Source: an uncultured Bacilli bacterium (GTDB lineage Bacteria; Bacillota_I; Bacilli_A; RF39; UBA660). Taken from it: a DNA stretch of 64,000 nucleotides. Below the pieces are notes generated by a model, which saw only the letters and a list, made by a program, of their open reading frames with translations, did no database searches and had not been told where the DNA came from. This document shows positions 1 to 54,107 of the stretch, one piece after another. The translations under genes and the position numbers were made by a program. The stretch lies in contig CAKOIS010000004.1 in assembly GCA_934087065.1 (NCBI GenBank), positions 419 to 64,418 on the forward strand. Direction: 5' to 3'. Within the stretch, counting starts at the first letter, position 1, and each line of letters starts with the position of its first letter.

Positions 1-515
1 CTCTACACAAAAACAATATAAATATTAAAGACGTTAACGTTGACTTATCAGTTGACTTTGCAAACCTAAGTGGAGCATATATTGGAAAACAAGGAGACTT
101 TGTTAACTTGTTTGAACCAAACGCATTAGCTTTAGAAAAAGAAGGTTATGGATGTGTACTTTCAAGCATCGGACTTATGAGTGGAGAACTTCCCTATACA
201 GTATTCCATGCTAAAAAAAGTTACATAGAAAACAATAAAGATACAATTAAAAAATTTACTAAAGGTATTCAAAAAGGTTTAGACTTCGTAAAAAATAATG
301 ATGCAACTAAAATTGCAGAAATTATAAAAAGTGAATTTACAAGTACTAGTTTTGAAGTCTTAGTAAGTGTTATAGAAAGATATAAAAACGCTGACAGTTG
401 GTGGGAAAGTACAGTTATCACTGAACGCGCATTTAATAATTTACTTGATTTAATGGAATACAATGGAGTGTTAGAAAGTACTGTTAATTATAACGACTTG
501 GTTTATAATGAATGA
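1..515 (+). CDS. ABC transporter substrate-binding protein, C-terminal part (NMT1/SsuA-like); open from window start
   Basis: Frame open from nt 3 with no start codon; sequence typical of aliphatic sulfonate/nitrate-type SBP; followed by cognate ATPase and permease genes. Confidence 0.6.
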   Translation, partial: LHKNNINIKDVNVDLSVDFANLSGAYIGKQGDFVNLFEPNALALEKEGYGCVLSSIGLMSGELPYTVFHAKKSYIENNKDTIKKFTKGIQKGLDFVKNNDATKIAEIIKSEFTSTSFEVLVSVIERYKNADSWWESTVITERAFNNLLDLMEYNGVLESTVNYNDLVYNE

Positions 516-1248
516 AATACTAAAAATTAAACACTTACACAAAACATATAACAGTATATCAAACGAAACACTAGCAGTAAGTGACACATCATTTACTGTA
601 TATGATGGGGAGTTTGTCTCTATAGTAGGCTCAAGTGGATGTGGAAAAAGTACCATACTAAACATAATTGCAGGACTAGATAACGACTACACTGGCTTAG
701 TTAAATTTAAAAGTGGCACAACAACAAGTTATATGCTACAAGACGATACCTTATTTCCTTGGTTAAATGTTCTTGACAATGCATTACTTGGTCTAAAAAT
801 ACAAAAGAAACTAACTATAGATAACATTAACTATGTTAAAAACTTACTTACTAAATATGGTCTAAAAGACTTCATGTACAAAAAAGTGACAGACCTAAGT
901 GGCGGTATGAAACAACGAGTAGCTCTAATTAGAACAATTGCTACAAAACCAAACCTAGTACTACTAGACGAACCCTTTAGTGCACTTGACTACCAAAACA
1001 GACTAAAAGTCAGTGTAGACGTATATAACATACTAAAAAAAGAAGGAATAACTACAATTATGGTAACTCATGACTTATCAGAAGCTCTAAGCATAAGTTC
1101 AAAAGTAATAGTAATGAGTAAAAGACCAACTAAAGTAAAGAATATCTATAACTTAGACTTTGACAAAAACCTATCTCCTTTAGAAAGAAGAAAAACTAGT
1201 ATATTTAACGAATACCTAGACTTACTATGGAGGGATATAGATGAGTGA
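508..1248 (+). CDS. ABC transporter ATP-binding protein (nitrate/sulfonate/taurine type)
   Basis: Walker A GSSGCGKST, ABC signature LSGGMKQRVAL, Walker B LLLDEPFSALD, H-loop; 8-nt overlap with upstream gene. Confidence 0.9.
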   Translation: MNEILKIKHLHKTYNSISNETLAVSDTSFTVYDGEFVSIVGSSGCGKSTILNIIAGLDNDYTGLVKFKSGTTTSYMLQDDTLFPWLNVLDNALLGLKIQKKLTIDNINYVKNLLTKYGLKDFMYKKVTDLSGGMKQRVALIRTIATKPNLVLLDEPFSALDYQNRLKVSVDVYNILKKEGITTIMVTHDLSEALSISSKVIVMSKRPTKVKNIYNLDFDKNLSPLERRKTSIFNEYLDLLWRDIDE

Positions 1249-2023
1249 TAGTAGAAAAAAATTCCTAAGATCCTACCGAAAGAACAAACTAATTATTAAA
1301 CTATCCCAAATATGCCTAGCATTATCTTTCTTACTAGTTTGGGAAGTATTAGCTAAATATGAAATAATAAACTCATTCATAACAAGTTCTCCTAGTAAAA
1401 TAGTAATAACAATAGTAAACTTATTTATAAAAGATAATCTAACATACCATATATTTGCAACATTATCAGAAACACTAATTGCTTTTATTATAACCCTAAT
1501 AATAAGTTTGACTTTAAGTATACTAATATATAAAAGTCCTACATTAGACAAAATAATAGACCCATATCTAACAGTAATAAATAGTTTACCTAAAGTAGCT
1601 TTAGGACCACTTCTAATAATATGGGTAGGGGCTAACTATAAAAGTATAATATTGATGGCTATTTTAATAAGTATAATTGTAAGCATACAATCAATTAGTA
1701 TAGGCTTTAAAAGTACTAACACAAATAGAATAAAACTACTTAAAAGTTTTAAAGCTACAGATAAAGACATACTAAAATATGTAGTAATACCAAGCAACTA
1801 TAAAATAATAATAAATAGCTGTAAAATAAATATAGGGCTATGTCTTATAGGTGTAATAATGGGAGAATTCCTAACAAGTAAAGCAGGCTTAGGTTACCTA
1901 ATACTTTATGGAAGTCAAGTATTTAACTTAAACCTAGTTATGAGTGGAATAATAATACTCTTAATAATATCAGTCATGCTTTACAAGATAATCACTACAA
2001 TAGAAAAACACTTAGATGTTTAA
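1241..2023 (+). CDS. ABC transporter permease (BPD-type, 6 TM)
   Basis: Hydrophobic; start overlaps the ATPase stop; operon context. Confidence 0.8.
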   Translation: MSDSRKKFLRSYRKNKLIIKLSQICLALSFLLVWEVLAKYEIINSFITSSPSKIVITIVNLFIKDNLTYHIFATLSETLIAFIITLIISLTLSILIYKSPTLDKIIDPYLTVINSLPKVALGPLLIIWVGANYKSIILMAILISIIVSIQSISIGFKSTNTNRIKLLKSFKATDKDILKYVVIPSNYKIIINSCKINIGLCLIGVIMGEFLTSKAGLGYLILYGSQVFNLNLVMSGIIILLIISVMLYKIITTIEKHLDV

Positions 2024-2028
2024 AACGA

Positions 2029-2075
2029 AGATAGGCGCGTCCGCCTAAAGGCGGATTATCTATCTCCGTTTTTTT
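2029..2075 (+). terminator. Rho-independent terminator of ABC operon
   Basis: GC-rich nested hairpin (gatag...tccgcc-taaa-ggcgga...ctatc) followed by T-run ccgttttttt. Confidence 0.8.
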
Positions 2076-2177
2076 CTTAATATCATATTATATAAACTAT
2101 AATTTAACCCTTAGATTACTTTATAGTAATTATATTAGTAAATTAATCGTTAGACACAGTTAAGTTAATGGGATCGT

Positions 2178-4109
2178 TTAGCATCCACTTGAAGTTTCAA
2201 CTATTTCATATGGTGTATCTGATGTCCCATTTCCTGTACTATATAGAGTGCAAGATTTGAGAGAAACTGCCGGACGCACACCGTACGCGTTGCTGACGTA
2301 GATGTGGCTCAAGCGGCCAGGGTTGGACGAACCGAACACGAAGAACACGTAAGCGCGGCTGCTATACCAAGCGTTAGGAGACAACAACCACCAGTAAGTT
2401 GAGCCTGTTGAGCTATAAGATGCATCTGTACTGCTAGAACTTGTTGTTAATGTTCCTTCCTTTGCATTCCTAAAATACCATGCATTTGCATTATAGTTTC
2501 CGGATATTCCACCTGCATAACTTATTTCATCTGCTGTCATTAATGCTATTGGGTATGTTAACTTTCCATTTCCTGCGCTACTATCTACTGTGAATTTGTC
2601 TTCTGTTGCTGCACAGTCATAACTTGGTGTTTTATTTGTTTCTAGTCTTGTGTCTGCTGCATAGTTAAATGATGAACTTACACTATATGTTCCATCAGTT
2701 ACACTTCTATCATTACAGTATACTGCTGTTGTACTTAAGTATTTTGTATAGTTAGTTTTTAGATTATTTTCATACCATGTATCTATTATTCCTTTTATTG
2801 TACTAGAATTTGTTTGATTTGTTCTATTATTTGCTTGTGAACCACTTGTTCCATACATATAGCCTACGTACATTGGGTCATTATATGTCTTATTGAACGC
2901 TGTACTTGAGCTTATATATGCATCAGTTGCTGTTGTGCTTGTTCCGTGGTATAGTAGTCTTACACTTCCATCTGAGTTTGTTCTTATTATTCTCCAGTAT
3001 AAGTCTTGATTACTTGCATTTTTTCCAAACTTTACCCAGTTTGTTGTTACGTTTCCAGCAAAATAATATACTGTTTTATTATCTTCTTTAGCTGTATAAA
3101 GTACTTGGTCTGTGCTATCAAATGCTGCGTTAAATGTTGTTCTATTTGTTGTTGCTATTCCTCTATCTGATAATAACTTAGCATATAATGTCGGTAAGAC
3201 TTCATATACACTACATATAGTTCCTTTTTGAACATTACTAAATTTAAGCGTACTTCCTGATACAGTTGGTGTTACATCATTAGTACAACTAATTGTTAAA
3301 TCGCTTAAAGTTTTAGATGTATTAGTTGGTGTTACTGTAAATTCTACATCTTCTCCCTTTAAAACTTGTTTTACATTCTTGTCAGCTGTAGCGTCTTTTA
3401 AATCTAACTCAATAGTTTTTAAATTACTATCAACATCACTACTGCTTCCACTAGGTAAGTATTCCCCTCTAGCACTTATTTGTGTTACAAAATATTTACC
3501 TTGACTAGCGTTAGTCGCGTCACTCTTAAGCCAAGCATATAATTTAAATGTTTTAGTTTCTCCTACAGCTATTAGTATATTTGATGCTATTTTATGGTTA
3601 CCGTCAGCATCAACATTAGCGCTATATAAAGTTGTTGTAGGAGTACTACTTCCTTCCCCAATAGCTATTTTAACTTCATCATCATTTACAAACTCACTAT
3701 ATTCTACCCCATCAGATATTATAGTACCTGCAGTTGGGTCTTTTTCTAAATATAAACTTACATATAATGGAATATCTCCATCATTAGTTAAAGTAAATAT
3801 ATAAGGCTTTAAATTACTCCAGTCACTTGCTGTAGATGGGTCACTTACGGGATATATCTTACTATAAACAGTATTACCATTAGCATCTTTTTCAGTTCCT
3901 ATAACATTACCTATATCACTTATAGTACTATTACAAGTACTATCTTTACAAAAAGCTAAAGAAATATCTCCAAACTTAATTGTATCAGTACTTCCTGTAG
4001 TATCTACTTTAAAAATTGCATAACTCATTGCAATAAAAACCAAACTAACTATAGCTACAACACCAATAGTTATTTTAATTTCTCTATTAATCATACCTTT
4101 TAGTCCCAT
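2178..4109 (-). CDS. Secreted surface protein: SipW-cognate signal peptide + TasA/camelysin-like N-terminal domain + ~330-aa C-terminal domain of unknown family (paralogue of 44540-47221)
   Basis: N-terminus ...AMSYAIFKVDTTGSTDTIKFGDISL resembles the TasA/CalY signal and mature start (A-F-x-D ... FxxGTLDL); SNLKPYIFTLTNDGDIPL resembles TasA SNLKPGDKLTKDFQFENNGSL; sipW-type gene lies upstream in the same strand; C-terminal region aligns with the 898-aa protein. Confidence 0.6.
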   Translation of the reverse strand: MGLKGMINREIKITIGVVAIVSLVFIAMSYAIFKVDTTGSTDTIKFGDISLAFCKDSTCNSTISDIGNVIGTEKDANGNTVYSKIYPVSDPSTASDWSNLKPYIFTLTNDGDIPLYVSLYLEKDPTAGTIISDGVEYSEFVNDDEVKIAIGEGSSTPTTTLYSANVDADGNHKIASNILIAVGETKTFKLYAWLKSDATNASQGKYFVTQISARGEYLPSGSSSDVDSNLKTIELDLKDATADKNVKQVLKGEDVEFTVTPTNTSKTLSDLTISCTNDVTPTVSGSTLKFSNVQKGTICSVYEVLPTLYAKLLSDRGIATTNRTTFNAAFDSTDQVLYTAKEDNKTVYYFAGNVTTNWVKFGKNASNQDLYWRIIRTNSDGSVRLLYHGTSTTATDAYISSSTAFNKTYNDPMYVGYMYGTSGSQANNRTNQTNSSTIKGIIDTWYENNLKTNYTKYLSTTAVYCNDRSVTDGTYSVSSSFNYAADTRLETNKTPSYDCAATEDKFTVDSSAGNGKLTYPIALMTADEISYAGGISGNYNANAWYFRNAKEGTLTTSSSSTDASYSSTGSTYWWLLSPNAWYSSRAYVFFVFGSSNPGRLSHIYVSNAYGVRPAVSLKSCTLYSTGNGTSDTPYEIVETSSGC

Positions 4110-4203
4110 TTATATCACCAACTTATTATCTTCTAATATAATAATTATAAAATAATTTTTTAATTTAATCAAGTAGGTATATACAAAAAAGAAATGTTTT
4201 TTA

Positions 4204-4659
4204 TTACATTTCTTGAATATTAAAAGATATTTCTACATTATTATATAAAGTTATACTATATTCTTTAGTTTCTTTTTTATTGATAATATTATTATCTAAT
4301 ATATAATAAGTAATATTATTAGATTTATAATTATCTAAATTTTCTAAATAAGTTAAGTTATCTAAATATTTTATTTTTAAGTCGTTTTTATTTAAGTTAT
4401 AACTATCTTTCACTCCTAAATATAAAAGATATTCTTTTTTATTTACATCGCTATTACTAACTTCTAAAGTTACACCTTTCTCATCTTCTTTTAATATAAC
4501 TTCTAGTCCTTCTCCATTATTAGCATATCTACTTGCTATAGTAGAATATTTAGACAAATCAATTTTACCCCACGCTATATATGTTAGAACAAGAATAACT
4601 AACATAAATGCTATTTCTGAAACTAAATAAATAATTTTTTTATTGATACTTTCAACCAT
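4204..4659 (-). CDS. Small N-terminally membrane-anchored protein in sipW operon (possible TapA-like accessory/anchor)
   Basis: Single N-terminal TM, Asn/Lys-rich extracellular part; sits between sipW-like and TasA-like genes. Confidence 0.4.
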   Translation of the reverse strand: MVESINKKIIYLVSEIAFMLVILVLTYIAWGKIDLSKYSTIASRYANNGEGLEVILKEDEKGVTLEVSNSDVNKKEYLLYLGVKDSYNLNKNDLKIKYLDNLTYLENLDNYKSNNITYYILDNNIINKKETKEYSITLYNNVEISFNIQEM

Positions 4660-4733
4660 AATACCACCCTTATTGATTCTATATTGTATATTGCTAACTA
4701 AGAAAAGTCAAGAAAAAAAACGCCCATCGTGCG

Positions 4734-5420
4734 TTAATTTATTTTCTTAGGTCTACCTCTTTTAGGTTTAGGTTTCTCTTCCATTTTTTCTTTTCTTCTT
4801 CTAGTTGGTAAATCATCTTCTTGTTCTTCTTCTAATTCTTGCATTTTATTTCTTACTTTAATTAGTTTTAATAATTTCATAATATCATAGATTATTACAC
4901 CCATCGCAGGAATAAGTATTACAGTAAACCAACCAAACTTACTAGCTAAGAAGAATTGTACTCTTCCAAGTTGTGGTATTACAAATCTAACTTTACCTAT
5001 AACTTGACTTTGGTCAATCATCTCGTTATCCATAACAGGGTTAGCATCTCCCTTAGTTCTAAATACTATACCATTATTAGTAACATGTTTTTCAACAACT
5101 CTGTGTGTTATTGGAGTTGAACCAAAGAATGAATTAGTACTATAATATGATATAACATCATTTATTTGAATATCTTCTGGATCCATTTTAGCTACAAACA
5201 CAACATCATAAACTGCTATATCAGGTGTCATACTAGGACTTATAATAGTATATAAACCAAGTGGTTGCCTTTGTCCCTTAGCCTGCGCTATTTTATTAAT
5301 TGCAATATATGACAATAAAAACGCACCAATTAAACACAAAATAGCCATAACACACCAAGAAATAGTCTTAGCTATTAAATAAATTACTCCCCTTTGTTTT
5401 TTCTCTTTCATATCTTCCAC
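4734..5420 (-). CDS. sipW: Type I signal peptidase, SipW-like (ER/archaeal type, S26B) with basic C-terminal tail
   Basis: N-terminal TM, catalytic-Ser motif ISPSMTPDI (SipW-type SxSM), C-terminal TM, tail ...KPKPKRGRPKK. Confidence 0.7.
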   Translation of the reverse strand: MEDMKEKKQRGVIYLIAKTISWCVMAILCLIGAFLLSYIAINKIAQAKGQRQPLGLYTIISPSMTPDIAVYDVVFVAKMDPEDIQINDVISYYSTNSFFGSTPITHRVVEKHVTNNGIVFRTKGDANPVMDNEMIDQSQVIGKVRFVIPQLGRVQFFLASKFGWFTVILIPAMGVIIYDIMKLLKLIKVRNKMQELEEEQEDDLPTRRRKEKMEEKPKPKRGRPKKIN

Positions 5421-5587
5421 CTACTATAATTTATTATATAAGATTTTCTTTATTTATACAAGGTAGTTTTTACTATATTTGACAAAATATGACAAATATT
5501 AGCAATAAATAGTACTCGTAAAACACAAAAGTAAATTTATTTTACAAGTAATACATATTTGCAAGAGGAATGATACATATTTATAAT

Positions 5588-5636
5588 ATACAAAAACAAA
5601 GTAAGCTTACTTTTGCTCACTTTGTTTTTTACTATA
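5588..5636 (-). terminator. Bidirectional hairpin terminator at the 3' end of queH
   Basis: aaacaaagt ... actttgttt 9-bp stem flanked by A-run and T-run; overlaps last queH codons. Confidence 0.45.
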
Positions 5637-8030: not shown

Positions 8031-8147
8031 ACTTCTTTCACTCCTTAAAAACCTAGTGTATTATATCACTAAATAGGTATTCTTGTAAAGAAAAATGTAA
8101 CAATTTTGTTACATTTAATGTCCAAAGTGTAAAAAATAAAATGTCAG

Positions 8148-9622: not shown

Positions 9623-9686
9623 CTTTTATACACTATATTCTATCAAATTTCACACAAAAATAAAAGAGCATTATTTAAATTGTGTA

Positions 9687-10217
9687 TTATTTAAGTAATT
9701 CACATAAATAATGTTCTTCCTTATTATGTTTCTTTTTTATTCTTTTATATTCACTAATATTATTAACTAAATTATTTACTCTCTTTTCATAATAATTGAT
9801 AAGAAAATCAGTTGACTGGTCATATTTTCTACCATTAAATTTTATATTCTTAAGTGCATATTGTTTAGGAGTTAACCCACTTTTATTATAGTCTTTTAAC
9901 ATTCCTTCATTAATTATAAGTAATATTTCTAACTCCGGCTTTGTACAGAATTTAAAAATTCTAGATTTAGATACATAATCTTTTAAATCTAACGGTACTT
10001 TAACTTCGTCACTCTGTTTATCTCCAATTCTGTACACAATAATTTCATCATTATAATGCTTGATTTCTGTTTTAATTACTGGATGAGTTAATTGTCTTAC
10101 ATTGTAAGGTTTTCTACCAATTAAATCTTCCCTAGTAAGAATTAATTTATTATTATCTATTAATAAATTCACAAGTGCTTCTTCATTTTTGCCTTCACAC
10201 ATTAAAAGATATTTCAC
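9687..10217 (-). CDS. DUF4276-like small protein with OLD/TOPRIM-type N-terminal motif; partner of upstream ATPase
   Basis: N-terminus MKYLLMCEGKNEEALVNLLI fits the hhhhhEGxxExxhh TOPRIM/DUF4276 start; 176 aa; 4-nt overlap (ATGA) with the ATPase gene. Confidence 0.5.
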   Translation of the reverse strand: MKYLLMCEGKNEEALVNLLIDNNKLILTREDLIGRKPYNVRQLTHPVIKTEIKHYNDEIIVYRIGDKQSDEVKVPLDLKDYVSKSRIFKFCTKPELEILLIINEGMLKDYNKSGLTPKQYALKNIKFNGRKYDQSTDFLINYYEKRVNNLVNNISEYKRIKKKHNKEEHYLCELLK

Positions 10218-11347
10218 ATTAACTCCTTCTTAAAATTCATTAAATATTCATAATTTAAATTTGTTCCAAATAAATTGTTATAAAAACACTTGCTTTTTAA
10301 TAAATCAGGTCTAACTTTATAATTCTTATACACATTTAATAATTCAATTTTCTTATCATAATTAGTAACATAAATATTATCAAGTCTCTCAAATAAATCA
10401 AGTAACTCAGCATAATGTGTAGTAAATATTAAAGTGGCATTATACTTATTAACACTTTTATCTTTATATAAGTTAATTATATTTTCAACTAAAGTTTTAT
10501 GAAAATGATTTTCTATCTCATCAATTATTAAATCACACCCAGTTTTTAAAGAATAAATTAAATTAGAAAACAAATCTATACCTTTATTAGTACCACTAGA
10601 TAATATTTGATAAAGCTCATAGTAAGTTACTTCCTTTGTAATTTTATCAGAATAAGTAATTCTACATTTATCATTATCAAATTTTTCAATATTACTAATA
10701 TGCGCATCAAATAATTTTAATGTACTCTTTAATGTTTTATTGTTATCATTTAATAATTTAAATACATTAAGTGCGTAAGAGTGAGTTGTGTAAGATAACT
10801 CATTACTTGTAAAAAATATACCTCTTACATCAATAGACTTCAAAACATAATAAACTATAGAAGTATCAAGTGGCATTTCTTTTTTGATATTCATAATTTC
10901 ATACTTACTAAAGTCAAATATATCTCTAATACTTTTAGTATATTTTCTTAAATAAATCTCTTCATTTTTAAACTCAAAAGAACCATTATTTTCATTTTTA
11001 CTAATTTCAGTAATATATCTATATAAGTTTCCTTCGTGATAAAAAACAATTTCTATTTTTAAGTGAGTATCAAATATCTCAAAAAATCTTTTAGAATAAA
11101 CTATTCTAAAATTACTCAAAATATCATAAGCAATATTTATTAAACTCAAAACTGTAGTCTTACCACTCGCATTTTTTCCTATAATTGAAGTAGTGTTAAA
11201 GGTAAATAAATTTTCTTCTATCTCGCCAAGTTCAAATTCTTTATCGTCTAATGTTTTCTTAGAAACGGGAACTAGAGAAAAACTTAAATCTTCTTTACAC
11301 AAATTAAAGTTATTAAATTTAACATTTAATAGTTTCATACTTTTCAC
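10214..11347 (-). CDS. AAA_21/AAA_15-type (ABC-like) ATPase of a two-gene defence-like module
   Basis: Walker A GKNASGKTT, Walker B/D-loop LIIDEIENHFH, H-loop FTTHYAELL; no transport or SMC context. Confidence 0.7.
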   Translation of the reverse strand: MKSMKLLNVKFNNFNLCKEDLSFSLVPVSKKTLDDKEFELGEIEENLFTFNTTSIIGKNASGKTTVLSLINIAYDILSNFRIVYSKRFFEIFDTHLKIEIVFYHEGNLYRYITEISKNENNGSFEFKNEEIYLRKYTKSIRDIFDFSKYEIMNIKKEMPLDTSIVYYVLKSIDVRGIFFTSNELSYTTHSYALNVFKLLNDNNKTLKSTLKLFDAHISNIEKFDNDKCRITYSDKITKEVTYYELYQILSSGTNKGIDLFSNLIYSLKTGCDLIIDEIENHFHKTLVENIINLYKDKSVNKYNATLIFTTHYAELLDLFERLDNIYVTNYDKKIELLNVYKNYKVRPDLLKSKCFYNNLFGTNLNYEYLMNFKKELM

Positions 11348-11438
11348 CTCTTTCCATAGTATATTATACTACACATTTTACAAAATAACCACATTTTTCG
11401 TTTAAAATGTAAAAAAATACCTAAATAATTAGATATTT

Positions 11439-13491: not shown

Positions 13492-13564
13492 TTAAACCCC
13501 TAATTAATATAAAAATTAAAAGCAAAACAGAAAACTTGTTTAAAGCTCCTATTTATAGGGGTTT
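13492..13564. repeat. Long-range inverted repeat aaaccccta ... taggggttt in the wecA-like leader
   Basis: 9-bp arms ~54 nt apart, seen directly. Confidence 0.4.
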
Positions 13565-13570
13565 AAAATA

Positions 13571-13690
13571 AATTTTTGCACTTTTGTAAAGTTTTTGCAA
13601 CCTATTTTTGACACTTTTGTATAGTTTTTTTAGTAATTTTTCGCACTTTTGCATACTTTTTAACACCTGTTTTTAGCACTTTTGTAAAAA
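13571..13690. repeat. Four tandem imperfect ~20-bp motifs (TTTTTGCACTTTTGTAAAG-like) at ~32-bp spacing
   Basis: Copies at 13573, 13605, 13637 and 13669; in the intergenic region between LCP and wecA-like genes. Confidence 0.6.
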
Positions 13691-21511: not shown

Positions 21512-22102
21512 TTAACTTTCGGTATTCTTTTTATTTTCAATTTTGTTTTTTATAATCATAGCTATAATAAACACTGGTATTAATATAATTATTGATAAAA
21601 ATACTGTCATTATTAAAGTATCATTTCTATAATATCTAGTTAATACTTCATCTATTGTATCAACTGTTGACCCACTTTGATAATACTCAATAAAAGCTTT
21701 CTCTATATTTTCATTAATATCTTCTTTATAAGTAATAAAGTAAGTCGATCCAATTACTATAAAAGGTGTCGTATTAACATCAGTTCTTAAATAATCAAAA
21801 GTATTCTTCATAAGTAACATATTATCTTCATTACCACTTACTTCAAAACTTCTAAGTTTAAAGAACTTTCCATATCTAGCATAAATACTCTCTAAATACT
21901 TTAAAAAGTCAACGCTCTTACTTTCTCCCTTAGTTCTAAAAAAGTATATTGTAGTTTGATTATCATTTTCTTCATAATCAATATCGCTTTCTATCCCCTC
22001 ATCTTCTAAAGATTCCACTAAATTCATGCTCTTAACTTCAGCATTCATTACCATTGGTAAAAAACAAAATAAACCAAATAAAACAACTAAATATTTTTTC
22101 AT
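21512..22102 (-). CDS. Secreted protein with C-terminal TM anchor, unknown function
   Basis: Signal peptide + C-terminal hydrophobic helix; 4-nt overlap with upstream gene. Confidence 0.4.
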   Translation of the reverse strand: MKKYLVVLFGLFCFLPMVMNAEVKSMNLVESLEDEGIESDIDYEENDNQTTIYFFRTKGESKSVDFLKYLESIYARYGKFFKLRSFEVSGNEDNMLLMKNTFDYLRTDVNTTPFIVIGSTYFITYKEDINENIEKAFIEYYQSGSTVDTIDEVLTRYYRNDTLIMTVFLSIIILIPVFIIAMIIKNKIENKKNTES

Positions 22103-23262
22103 ATCATTTCCTCCTGTATACCTGTATATTTTTCTAATAACTGATTAACTAGTTCTTTCATTCCATCACTATTTTCTATCTGCTCTATTAAATAAGTAGC
22201 ATCCTCTTCATTAAATTCGCTTATCTTCTTAACGTTACTCAAGTCAAGCTTAACTTCTTCATAATCAGTTTCTTCCTCTTTGAAGTTTAAACTAACAAGT
22301 AAACCAGCACTATCATATTGAATTATAACTTTATATTCATTATCTTTTACTTCAAATACAACTTTAAATTCCGACTTTTCATTAACCATATAATCAAAAC
22401 TAACTGTATCTTTTAATATTCCAATAACTAAATCTTCTTTATCTTGAATTATATCAATTTGACTAAGTACAATTTTATAATTATCAAATTTGTAAGTAAA
22501 CACTACTTTTTCAGGTTTAAAGTTTTTCTCACTAAACACATCTTCATAAGTTAAATCATATTCACTTAAATATTCTTTAAATTTAATACTCTCTAAATTA
22601 CTTTCAAGTCTCTTATAAAATTCGTCATCCAAGTTAACCGTTATAACTAAATTATCTTTAGTAACCTTTCTTTTTAAATCGTCTTTATTTAAAGTATTGC
22701 CAATTACTTCAACAACTTTTTCAAGCATAGAACTTTCTTTACTTTCAGAATTTAAATACGGGATTAATTCCTTAATATATTTTTTATACTCTTTATAATT
22801 CATTTCATCTTCTTCTAAATCTTCATTAAAACTTTCTTCATCTATCAAATATATTCTATCAAAAAATTTAACATAAAACTCATCATTATAAAAATAAGCA
22901 CTGACTTTATAAGTTTCTTTATCTTCATAATTTAAATAAATAGTTTCCTCTAGATTATCTTTTAAATTACTATTAGATTTAAAAGAAATATTAAACTTAT
23001 TAAAGTATTCTAATATTTCTTGAGCTTCTTTATTTTCAGTATAAATATTATAACTAAATTTATAACCAAAACTATAATTATCTCTTATTTTATTAGCAGT
23101 ATACTTAATTTCACTAAAAGTATCCACTAGAATTACTTTAGGAGTAAGTTTATAATAAACGTAACTTCCTGCCGCACATAAAAGAAGTACTAAAGCTAAA
23201 ATTACTATCCATTTAAACCATCCACTATCCTTTTCTTCAAAAAACACATCATCTTTACTCAT
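22099..23262 (-). CDS. Single-pass membrane protein with acidic extracytoplasmic domain, unknown function
   Basis: N-terminal TM (WFKWIVILALVLLLCAAGSYVYY); no recognised motifs. Confidence 0.4.
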   Translation of the reverse strand: MSKDDVFFEEKDSGWFKWIVILALVLLLCAAGSYVYYKLTPKVILVDTFSEIKYTANKIRDNYSFGYKFSYNIYTENKEAQEILEYFNKFNISFKSNSNLKDNLEETIYLNYEDKETYKVSAYFYNDEFYVKFFDRIYLIDEESFNEDLEEDEMNYKEYKKYIKELIPYLNSESKESSMLEKVVEVIGNTLNKDDLKRKVTKDNLVITVNLDDEFYKRLESNLESIKFKEYLSEYDLTYEDVFSEKNFKPEKVVFTYKFDNYKIVLSQIDIIQDKEDLVIGILKDTVSFDYMVNEKSEFKVVFEVKDNEYKVIIQYDSAGLLVSLNFKEEETDYEEVKLDLSNVKKISEFNEEDATYLIEQIENSDGMKELVNQLLEKYTGIQEEMI

Positions 23263-53114: not shown

Positions 53115-54107
53115 TTATCTATTTAATAACCAGTCAATAATATTTTTATGAATAATCCCATCTTGTGACATATCTATAGTATCTTCAGAAATTACATATT
53201 TTGGATAATTGTCTTTTATATTTTTATATGCACCAAATTCTCTTTTAATAACATTATCATCACTTAATATATAACATACCTGATAATACTCGATTTTACC
53301 ATTTTTTGTAGCAATAAAATCAATTTCACCCTTTTCCAGTAATCCTATTTTAACATCATAACCTCTTGATATTAATTCATTATAAACAATATTTTCCAAA
53401 TATGCTCCCATCTGAGGTCTTTTAGATATATTCATTACTTGACCTATTCCTAAATCTGTTAAATAATATTTATACTTACCATTTAATATTCTTTTCTCTC
53501 TAACATCATATCTACTAACTTTATTAATTAACATAGCCTTTGACATATATTCTAAATAATTATATAAAGTGGTTTTTGTTAACCCTCTATCATCATTGGT
53601 ATTAAAATATTTTATTAAATTTTCAGCTGAAAAAGTTTGAGATGGAGTAGTTACAATATATTCTACTATCCTATTAAACAAATCTATATCTTTTATAGAA
53701 AACCTCTCTACAATGTCTTTCATCACTATAGAATTATATATATCAGTTAAATAAGTTCTACATTGTTCTTCATCAGTTAATGCAAATCTTTGTGGCAAAC
53801 CACCAAAAATAATATAATCATCAAAATATTTGACTAACTCATATTTATCTTTATTTATTATTCCATTAAGTTCACAAACTTCACTAAACATAAACGGAAG
53901 AACATTAAACCTTACATATCTGCCTGCTAAATGAGTAGCTAGTTCTCCAGACAATAAGTCACTATTTGATCCAGTTATAAAAATTGAAACATTATCTCTA
54001 AAATCAGCTTTAAATGAATTAACTGCTTTTTCCCAATTAGAAATATTTTGTATTCTACAAAATACATAATCACACTTTTTTCTAATTTTGTATTCCAAAC
54101 AATACAA
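53115..54107 (-). pseudogene. N-terminally truncated AAA_14 + DUF4143 ATPase (Walker A region missing, Walker B DE replaced by CR)
   Basis: ORF aligns to the family only from the region around ...IFITGSNSDLL...GRYVRFNVLPFMFSE onward; VFCRIQN sits where vfiDEIQ is expected; no in-frame upstream sequence before ftsH. Confidence 0.5.

Follow-up and report, generated by a model that had tools for sequence, protein, structure and literature searches.

AbiL, RloAB, PARIS and MADS3-4 have been grouped with OLD and Gabija as defence systems that combine an ATP-binding cassette (ABC) ATPase with a TOPRIM protein (PMC11464382; PMC12065111; PMC13064643). The PARIS nuclease AriB is bound by a hexamer of AriA until a phage protein sets it free, whereupon it cleaves tRNA-Lys as a dimer; the complex has the composition AriA6:AriB3 (PMC11464382). 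DUF4276 is a recognised Toprim family (PMC12065111), and in NetFlax AAA(D29) ATPases neutralise TOPRIM_OLD toxins (nodes D44 and D60) in E. coli toxicity-neutralisation assays (PMC10440598). The subject of this report is a two-gene locus of about 1.7 kb on the minus strand of a 64,000-nucleotide stretch of contig CAKOIS010000004.1 (hereafter the window) from an uncultured gut Bacilli bacterium. The first gene encodes an ATPase and the second a protein of 176 amino acids (aa) that belongs to an unnamed family. With a probability that we put at roughly 0.62, the pair is a horizontally acquired defence or toxin-antitoxin-type cassette of the ABC-ATPase plus TOPRIM-nuclease class, forming a separate sister lineage to AbiL/RloAB and being more distantly related to PARIS. 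Since the pair was absent from the closest genome and couples an ABC ATPase to a protein with the appearance of an OLD/RloB-type TOPRIM, an uncatalogued relative of AbiL and PARIS was considered the most likely identity.

The two proteins compared with described systems

The original prediction, made from the sequence alone, had placed two overlapping open reading frames at this locus and described them as a split OLD/PARIS-like module of an ABC-type ATPase and a DUF4276/TOPRIM-like protein. Both frames were confirmed on the minus strand (10214-11347, 377 aa when read from a GTG codon, and 9687-10217, 176 aa), and since homologues were found for each they are real genes and not chance reading frames. 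The first product was an ABC-type ATPase, as had been proposed: it matched Pfam AAA_21 (PF13304) at 64.8 bits against a gathering cutoff of 27 (E = 1.8e-17; profile positions 2-304 of 304), and all of its catalytic motifs, Walker A, ABC signature, Walker B and H-loop, were intact (Table 1). The segment LIIDEIENHFH, previously labelled a D-loop, is present, but its LIIDE part is the Walker B motif (D273/E274), after which the D-loop follows; an LSSGT signature is also there. The top PADLOC model for the ATPase was AbiLi (5.1e-37; 126 bits), followed by AriA (4.5e-16), with mad3 (1.1e-8), GajA (about 6e-6) and PtuA far weaker. An NCBIfam scan of the ATPase gave nothing near any cutoff (MAD3, 15.5 bits against a cutoff of 420). 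The PADLOC check that had been suggested for both proteins was positive for the ATPase and gave no match for its small partner.

The MKYLLMCEGKNEE motif at the start of the small protein, on which its original assignment was based, is real and is the most conserved segment of a large family. Matches to 348 of the 90%-identity clusters were obtained, and an exhaustive hidden Markov model (HMM) search (E <= 1e-3) yielded 657 of the clusters formed at 50% identity. In a set of 76 members that reached as low as 27% identity, E8, G9, D66, E95 and E97 were invariant and E12, R41, R63 and P94 were at least 90% conserved; T92 was invariant among close members. Named members, from Pseudobutyrivibrio, Apilactobacillus kunkeei and B. 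longum, were all annotated as hypothetical proteins. The member on plasmid pBNS11-360kb of L. salivarius (Ligilactobacillus salivarius), WP_095759350.1 (L010:7980-8522), is named "N-6 DNA methylase" in RefSeq; this name is probably an annotation error, since the protein is 180 aa long, carries EGxxE, D and TPEIE motifs and lies directly after an AAA_21 ATPase.

Neither the DUF4276 label nor the DUF4435 label could be retained for the small protein. No usable HMM match to these families was obtained with the window protein, with a set of 35 members (DUF4276 at E <= 10) or with the set of 76 members (E <= 1), and for the window protein Pfam, NCBIfam and PADLOC were all negative. RloB gave no match in either set, and 0 of 76 members matched Pfam DUF4276, DUF4435 or RloB at E <= 1. 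Weak AbiLii matches were seen in only two to three members per set. Only one Pfam family, OLD-like_TOPRIM, was matched in more than two members; its matches, in seven of the 76, were sub-threshold (best, 0.011). One member, P0114, matched the PADLOC AbiLii model at 1.4e-4 over model positions 30-99, compared with 4e-14 over positions 27-91 for a true RloB protein.

The nearest described systems are AbiL of Lactococcus (AbiLi plus AbiLii) and RloA/RloB of Campylobacter. As in these systems, the window pair is a two-gene operon with the ATPase first and a tight overlap (here GTGA), the best PADLOC model of the ATPase is AbiLi, and family members occupy the same kinds of plasmid and island contexts. 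The small protein shares the three-motif layout of RloB (hhhCEGxxxE, strand-D and xxPxxE-helix) and aligns with it colinearly. In contrast to RloB and AbiLii, it fails the Pfam RloB (PF13707) and PADLOC AbiLii models, is about 176 aa long instead of 200-250 aa, has D-x3-D where RloB has DxD and TKPElE where RloB has SNPcFE, and lacks the C-terminal NPxT motif. The ATPases also differ, being 374-402 aa long as opposed to 418-467 aa, falling into a separate cluster and scoring about 200 bits lower on AbiLi.

In every context looked at, which comprised contigs of gut metagenome-assembled genomes (MAGs), megaplasmids of B. longum and L. salivarius and seven IMG/VR viral contigs, an AAA_21 ATPase of 372-402 aa was encoded immediately upstream of the small gene; the two genes overlapped by 1-8 nt, abutted directly or were separated by at most 18 nt. 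On one viral contig (L085) the ATPase gene was cut by the contig end. These partner ATPases clustered with the window ATPase (E = 1e-30 to 1e-140), whereas the ATPases partnered with RloB formed a cluster of their own, with cross-cluster E values of only 0.005 to 1e-14. On the AbiLi model the RloB partners scored 285-322 bits and the partners of the small-protein family 94-126 bits. Taken together, the strict pairing, the separate ATPase cluster and the gap in AbiLi scores indicate, at the level of sequence comparison, that the two genes have diversified together as a sister lineage of AbiL/RloAB. In an alignment of 10 ATPases drawn from both lineages, the key motif residues were invariant (Table 1). 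One genome (L003) carried both a canonical AAA_21 plus Pfam RloB pair (L003:1-1079) and an AAA_21 plus new-family pair (L003:6865-8543), with genes for a sulfatase, an asparagine synthase and RmuC in the 7 kb between them, which suggests that RloAB and the new lineage are not redundant.

A genuine Pfam RloB protein, which turned up by chance 7 kb from a family member, was combined with one close homologue and six diverse plasmid RloB proteins into a profile whose hallmarks were hIhCEGxxTE, vWcVfDvD and SNPcFEiWyLLH. When the small-protein family was compared with this profile by hhalign, a single colinear alignment of 183 columns was obtained with all three motifs in register (p = 0.0073), motif 3 of the family aligning with SNPcFEiW. 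Reversed-profile controls gave p values of about 0.7, and none of 160 column-shuffled profiles reached the observed score of 24.25 (null mean 11.8, standard deviation 2.1, maximum 19.5); a Gumbel fit to this null gave p of about 3e-4. The first comparison, against a shallow RloB alignment, was weaker (p = 0.027) and gained strength once seven diverse RloB proteins from plasmids and metagenomes were included; a further search to deepen the profile yielded one over-represented subfamily only and no gain. An hhalign comparison with a single Gabija-type TOPRIM region lacked power, and the RloB positive control likewise failed; in it, the CEGxxE motif of the family fell opposite a GajA-like VEGISE motif. 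Neither the family profile nor the RloB profile matched PDB sequences at E <= 10. The comparison with RloB is suggestive of remote homology and not of membership.

PARIS resembles the window pair in that an ABC ATPase and an OLD-like TOPRIM effector are encoded separately, AriA is the second-best PADLOC model of the ATPase, and the best structural neighbour of the small protein, PH0156 (2P62), is a solved relative of AriB/DUF4435. Unlike PARIS, the small protein has no DUF4435 (PF14491) match, the ATPase matches AbiLi better than AriA, and the Foldseek match to the PARIS complex was not significant (E = 0.067). The PARIS proteins are also larger (AriB, about 300 aa; AriA, about 450-480 aa), which makes the window pair much more compact. 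Of the related systems, PARIS nevertheless offers the working model that is understood best, with an ATPase scaffold from which a tRNA-cleaving nuclease is released. OLD and GajA carry ATPase and TOPRIM in one polypeptide, unlike the two proteins found here; to the OLD family, the only link at the level of Pfam was the seven sub-threshold OLD-like_TOPRIM matches. Gabija also needs the GajB helicase (UvrD-like, class 2), and there was no helicase near the window pair. The AAA(D29)/TOPRIM_OLD pairs of NetFlax follow the same two-gene logic. Node D44 differs in being RloB-like; node D60 (S. agalactiae WP_000010056.1) might belong to the small-protein family, which could lower the novelty of the latter; cluster look-ups for this node yielded only entries from other genera, all labelled hypothetical protein. 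Mad3/Mad4 (DUF4276) of MADS likewise join an AAA_15/21 ATPase to a small Toprim-superfamily protein, but here there was no DUF4276 (PF14103) match, only a weak mad3 match and no methylation module near the pair. The pair thus fails the small-subunit models of AbiL, PARIS and MADS as well as the single-polypeptide architecture of OLD and Gabija. Of the split OLD/PARIS-like module first proposed, the AAA_21 ATPase (with AbiLi and then AriA as its best models) and the insertion were upheld, and a TOPRIM-like fold is predicted for the small protein; the nearest described system proved to be AbiL/RloAB, and not MADS, Gabija or OLD proper.

Predicted fold and active site of the small protein

An AlphaFold2 model built with the family alignment had a predicted local distance difference test (pLDDT) score of 91.5 and a predicted template modelling (pTM) score of 0.87. 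In the model, strand 2-7 is followed by CEGxNEE, strand 59-64 by GDKQxD and strand 87-90 by CTKPELE, which opens a helix. In structural comparisons the best neighbour was PH0156 (score 7.5 over 143 residues; 21% identity), followed by the C-terminal region of a class 2 OLD protein (6NK8; 6.1 over 128 residues), GajA (5.1 over 119 residues), RecR and topoisomerase II (5.1, over 79 and 92 residues, respectively) and Thermus OLD (4.9 over 103 residues); generic flavodoxin-like folds scored 5-6 over about 80 residues. The match to PH0156 matters because this protein is the top HHpred match (>97%) of the lactococcal PARIS nuclease AriB/DUF4435 (PMC11381338). Published AbiLii models align to an OLD nuclease over 123 of 206 residues (PMC13064643), a span similar to those obtained here.

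The two-metal site of the class 2 OLD protein of B. pseudomallei consists of E400/E404 after strand 1, D455/D457 after strand 3 and T506/E508 at the start of the next helix (PMC6755086). Judged by sequence position and predicted secondary structure, the acidic set of the small protein (E8/E12; D66/D70; T92/E95/E97) would follow the same order. The conserved Glu directly after strand 1, a Toprim feature, is present as E8, which follows strand 2-7 and is invariant in the 76 members. The metal-B-type residues, such as are carried by OLD, RNase M5 and DnaG, have possible counterparts in E12, T92, E95 and E97, whose places along the sequence match those of E404, T506 and E508. Motif 2 stands in place of the TOPRIM DxD; in most members its second Asp comes four residues after the first (D70), and the B. 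longum protein reads DSDSD at this position. Of the TOPRIM fold with a conserved Glu and a DxD that had been suggested as a check, the Glu is present as E8. The confident model and its TOPRIM/OLD-type neighbours are suggestive of the fold, and at the place of the DxD D66 is invariant, mostly within a D-x3-D. The OLD-like order of the acidic residues, the remote full-length similarity to RloB and the strict pairing with a co-diverging ATPase lineage together point to an OLD-like TOPRIM nuclease as the predicted identity of the small protein.

Insertion site, gene layout and neighbourhoods

In the closest genome, MAG UBA11492 (L011), the flanks were 93-96% identical by blastn and gpsA was followed directly by the LtaS-like gene, with 22 bp (L011:9032-9053) in place of window positions 9692-11376. 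The pair was present in 0 of 57 related gpsA loci; other strains carried it at the same gpsA-ltaS site, the ATPase copy in L074 being 97% identical. As had been noted from the sequence, the cassette is flanked by housekeeping genes, gpsA and an LtaS-like sulfatase-family gene, and is more AT-rich than its surroundings: its GC content was 22.4% against 28.2% for the window, and the ATPase and small genes ranked second (z = -2.2) and fifth (z = -1.45) most AT-rich among 47 window genes. The proposal of an acquired islet was thus supported, and comparison of gpsA-ltaS loci in related genomes showed that the pair is accessory and not a uniformly conserved core locus. The cassette revealed neither an integrase nor terminal repeats nor a target-site duplication, and homologous exchange through the conserved flanks would be the simplest route of entry.

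The coordinates of the cassette, its genes and their motifs are collected in Table 1. The start codon of the small gene is a GTG shared with the stop codon of the ATPase gene, so that the 4-nt overlap reads GTGA and not ATGA as first reported. Although the ATPase can be read as 377 aa from the GTG at 11347, the ATG at 11338 is the more likely start, since the ribosome-binding site (RBS) GGAAAGAGG fits it and the 97%-identical copy in L074 was called at 374 aa. A consensus promoter scan around the cassette gave no full match, so any promoter function of the leader with its TATAAT box is presumptive. The 14-nt inverted repeat at the 3' end is 93% complementary and was missed by the terminator scan because it has too few G-C pairs. 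Since one of its arms lies in the cassette and the other in the flank common to the empty site, the 3' end of the cassette may rebuild the gpsA terminator hairpin. This hairpin was the only feature above the AT-rich background when terminal inverted or direct repeats, a promoter and a terminator were sought around the cassette.

Table 1. Positions in the window of the cassette, its two genes, their motifs and the adjoining signals
Feature	Position	Strand	Details
Inserted two-gene cassette	9692..11376	-	1,685 bp, 22.4% GC; delimited by blastn against sister MAG L011
Cassette 5' leader	11339..11376	-	TATAAT box at 11363-11368; RBS GGAAAGAGG at 11347-11355 (read from the sequence)
ABC-type ATPase gene, AbiLi-like	10214..11338	-	374 aa from ATG 11338; frame reaches GTG 11347 (377 aa)
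Walker A / P-loop, GKNASGKTT	11153..11179	-	residues 54-62 (374-aa form); G54, N56, G59, K60 invariant in 10 ATPases
ABC signature, LSSGT	10589..10603	-	residues 246-250; S247, G249, T250 invariant in 10 ATPases
Walker B, LIIDE, then D-loop	10517..10531	-	residues 270-274; D273, E274 invariant in 10 ATPases
H-loop, TTH	10415..10423	-	residues 306-308; T307, H308 invariant in 10 ATPases
Gene junction	10214..10230	-	RBS AGAAGGAG at 10223-10230; GTGA start/stop overlap at 10214-10217 (read from the sequence)
Small-protein gene, predicted compact OLD/RloB-like TOPRIM nuclease, unnamed family	9687..10217	-	176 aa, GTG start
Motif 1, CEGKNEE (C7-E13)	10179..10199	-	right after strand 1; E8 invariant, E12 at least 90% (ExxxE)
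Motif 2, RIGDKQSD (R63-D70)	10008..10031	-	after strand 59-64; D66 invariant, D70 about 90% in close members
Motif 3, CTKPELEILLIINE (C91-E104)	9906..9947	-	after strand 87-90, opens helix; E95, E97 invariant, P94 at least 90%
14-nt inverted repeat (I23), then T-run	9664..9718	-	possible terminator; spans the stop codon of the small gene

Two neighbouring intergenic slots vary independently of the gpsA-ltaS slot. In the window, the slot between an LCP gene and a glycosyltransferase gene and that between ltaS and typA are empty, and the gpsA/ltaS slot holds the pair. In L011, these LCP/glycosyltransferase, gpsA/ltaS and ltaS/typA slots hold an AAA_14/DUF4143 ATPase gene, nothing and AbiEi/AbiEii, respectively; in L074-L075 they hold the AAA_14/DUF4143 ATPase gene, the ATPase and small-protein pair and nothing. 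The presence of AbiE in the next slot of L011, which is empty in the window, indicates that the gaps between neighbouring core genes are interchangeable slots for small defence cassettes. The AbiEi/AbiEii abortive-infection/toxin-antitoxin pair lies at L011:10551-12054 (Pfam AbiEii, 6.3e-28; empty site at window 8119-8137). The AAA_14 plus DUF4143 ATPase gene (443-446 aa; L011:5563-6903 and L074:1382-2713; empty site at window 13510-13571) lies between the LCP gene and a glycosyltransferase-4 gene and is independent of the ATPase/TOPRIM pair. Elsewhere in the window, a minus-strand reading frame at 53115-54107, between parA and ftsH, has only the DUF4143 part (3.7e-17), without the Walker A/AAA_14 N-terminus, and looks like an N-terminally truncated, decaying copy of this kind of accessory ATPase.

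The most AT-rich gene of the window (4204-4659, minus strand; 19.5% GC, 151 aa, no Pfam match) is kept at the same place in other strains (L074:11557-12012). A second low-GC pair on the minus strand, at 21512-22102 and 22099-23262 (23.5-24.4% GC, 4-nt overlap, 196 and 387 aa, no Pfam match), was considered as a second ATPase/TOPRIM module and rejected, both products having predicted membrane segments and no P-loop.

In other genomes the pair occupies positions that are typical of defence genes. On L083, L088 and L089 it is flanked by ParE/Phd toxin-antitoxin genes on one side and by large serine recombinases on the other, and on L080 its neighbours encode a serine recombinase, a methyltransferase of the D12 class and an HNH protein. 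Its surroundings on the megaplasmid of B. longum comprise toxin-antitoxin genes (YafQ and GNAT), IS607/TnpB, Lar and a methyltransferase, and on the L. salivarius plasmid it is beside ArdC. It is also carried by seven IMG/VR viral contigs. On one of these, L085, the stretch 429-5594 holds the pair and, just downstream after one small reading frame, a Gabija-type module made up of an AAA_15 plus OLD-like_TOPRIM protein (666 aa) and a UvrD helicase (582 aa). This contig thus has ATPase/TOPRIM systems of two different classes side by side.

Alternative explanations, proposed mechanism and significance

Several results weigh against the assignment of the pair to an acquired ABC-ATPase plus TOPRIM-nuclease cassette. 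The small protein of the window had no match in Pfam, NCBIfam or PADLOC, including DUF4276, DUF4435, RloB and AbiLii (E <= 1), and no significant HMM match ties it to any TOPRIM family. The HH-suite probability of the RloB alignment was only 5%, and most members have D-x3-D in place of the canonical DxD. Foldseek returned nothing significant from the PDB, where the PARIS complex came second, or from BFVD, where an RloB-like protein came first (E = 0.071). No members of the small-protein family were found in the GenBank phage collection, and the window cassette stands alone between housekeeping genes and not in a defence island.

Among the other explanations, the one that survives best, though we consider it unlikely, is that the pair is a selfish toxin-antitoxin or addiction module, in which an AAA ATPase antitoxin and a nuclease toxin would be kept by post-segregational killing or hitch-hiking and would give no real protection against phage. 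The toxicity-neutralisation assays of NetFlax validated AAA(D29)/TOPRIM_OLD as toxin-antitoxin pairs (PMC10440598), and family members reside on megaplasmids among other toxin-antitoxin genes. Nevertheless, the module is also chromosomal and stand-alone, it co-locates with Gabija, restriction-modification-like and RloAB systems, and the related AbiL and PARIS do protect against phage (PMC13064643; PMC11464382). The toxin-antitoxin and defence readings are not mutually exclusive.

A somewhat smaller chance was given to the small protein having a generic Rossmann/flavodoxin-like fold and acting as an adaptor or regulator without catalytic activity, in which case the ATPase or an unlinked factor would be the effector. 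Such a role fits poorly with five residues, four of them acidic, that are invariant across 27-64% identity and placed at strand ends, with TOPRIM/OLD-type structural matches that align 119-143 residues as opposed to the about 80 of generic folds, and with an RloB alignment that is colinear across all three motifs. It is very improbable that the genes serve in housekeeping or DNA repair, in the manner of RecF (ABC ATPase) and RecR (TOPRIM), or are a restriction-modification accessory like the original rloAB in type I loci, given that the pair is absent from the sister genome and from 57 of 57 related loci, has an atypical GC content, occurs on plasmids and viral contigs and is not flanked by restriction-modification genes in the window. 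Least credible of all is a DUF4276-type module like Mad3/Mad4 of MADS, which would be in line with the weak mad3 match of the ATPase (1.1e-8) and the hhhhEGxxE motif in common with a recognised Toprim family (PMC12065111), but Pfam DUF4276 was matched by none of the 76 members, AbiLi far outscored mad3, the NCBIfam MAD3 score was far below its cutoff and no methyltransferase or other MADS genes are adjacent in the window.

As an acquired relative of AbiL/RloAB, the pair would, by analogy, work like AbiL or PARIS, and its anti-phage function and target, complex formation, trigger and substrate are proposed on that basis. The two translationally coupled proteins would form a complex in which the ATPase both senses infection and holds the 176-aa nuclease in check. 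On a phage cue, perceived via the ATPase and its ATP cycle, the nuclease would be freed or activated, and its putative two-metal acidic site (E8, E12; D66, D70; T92, E95, E97) would cut nucleic acid. The target might be either tRNA, as for AriB, or DNA, as for OLD and GajA, and cleavage would lead to a growth stop and abortive infection.

A more ambitious proposal, which we put forward only tentatively, is that the pair could be the first recognised representative of a defence family that is widespread but uncatalogued, with at least 657 clusters (50% identity) distributed over gut Bacillota, Lactobacillales, Bifidobacterium and prophages. This family might represent the most compact ABC-ATPase plus TOPRIM system known, with a 176-aa effector and a non-canonical E-x3-E / D-x3-D / T-x2-E-x-E metal site. 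It would respond to a phage trigger and attack an RNA or DNA target of its own, independently of canonical RloAB.

The architecture itself will not surprise a specialist; what is new is a large, compact and gut-common family that was missed by the models tested. The small protein escaped Pfam, NCBIfam 2026 and PADLOC 2.0.0, and the NCBI annotation pipeline PGAP calls it a hypothetical protein or, once, an N-6 DNA methylase. Because it goes unrecognised, the PADLOC 2.0.0 models see only an orphan AbiLi-like ATPase. The locus also shows single small defence or toxin-antitoxin cassettes (the pair, AbiE and the DUF4143 ATPase) swapping among adjacent intergenic slots without a recombinase of their own. 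The small size of the pair (374 plus 176 aa) would suit a minimal model of how an ABC ATPase controls a TOPRIM nuclease. The family is a large one, frequent in the gut bacteria of humans and animals and on their plasmids and prophages, and a profile for the small protein would improve defence-system censuses in poorly cultured lineages.

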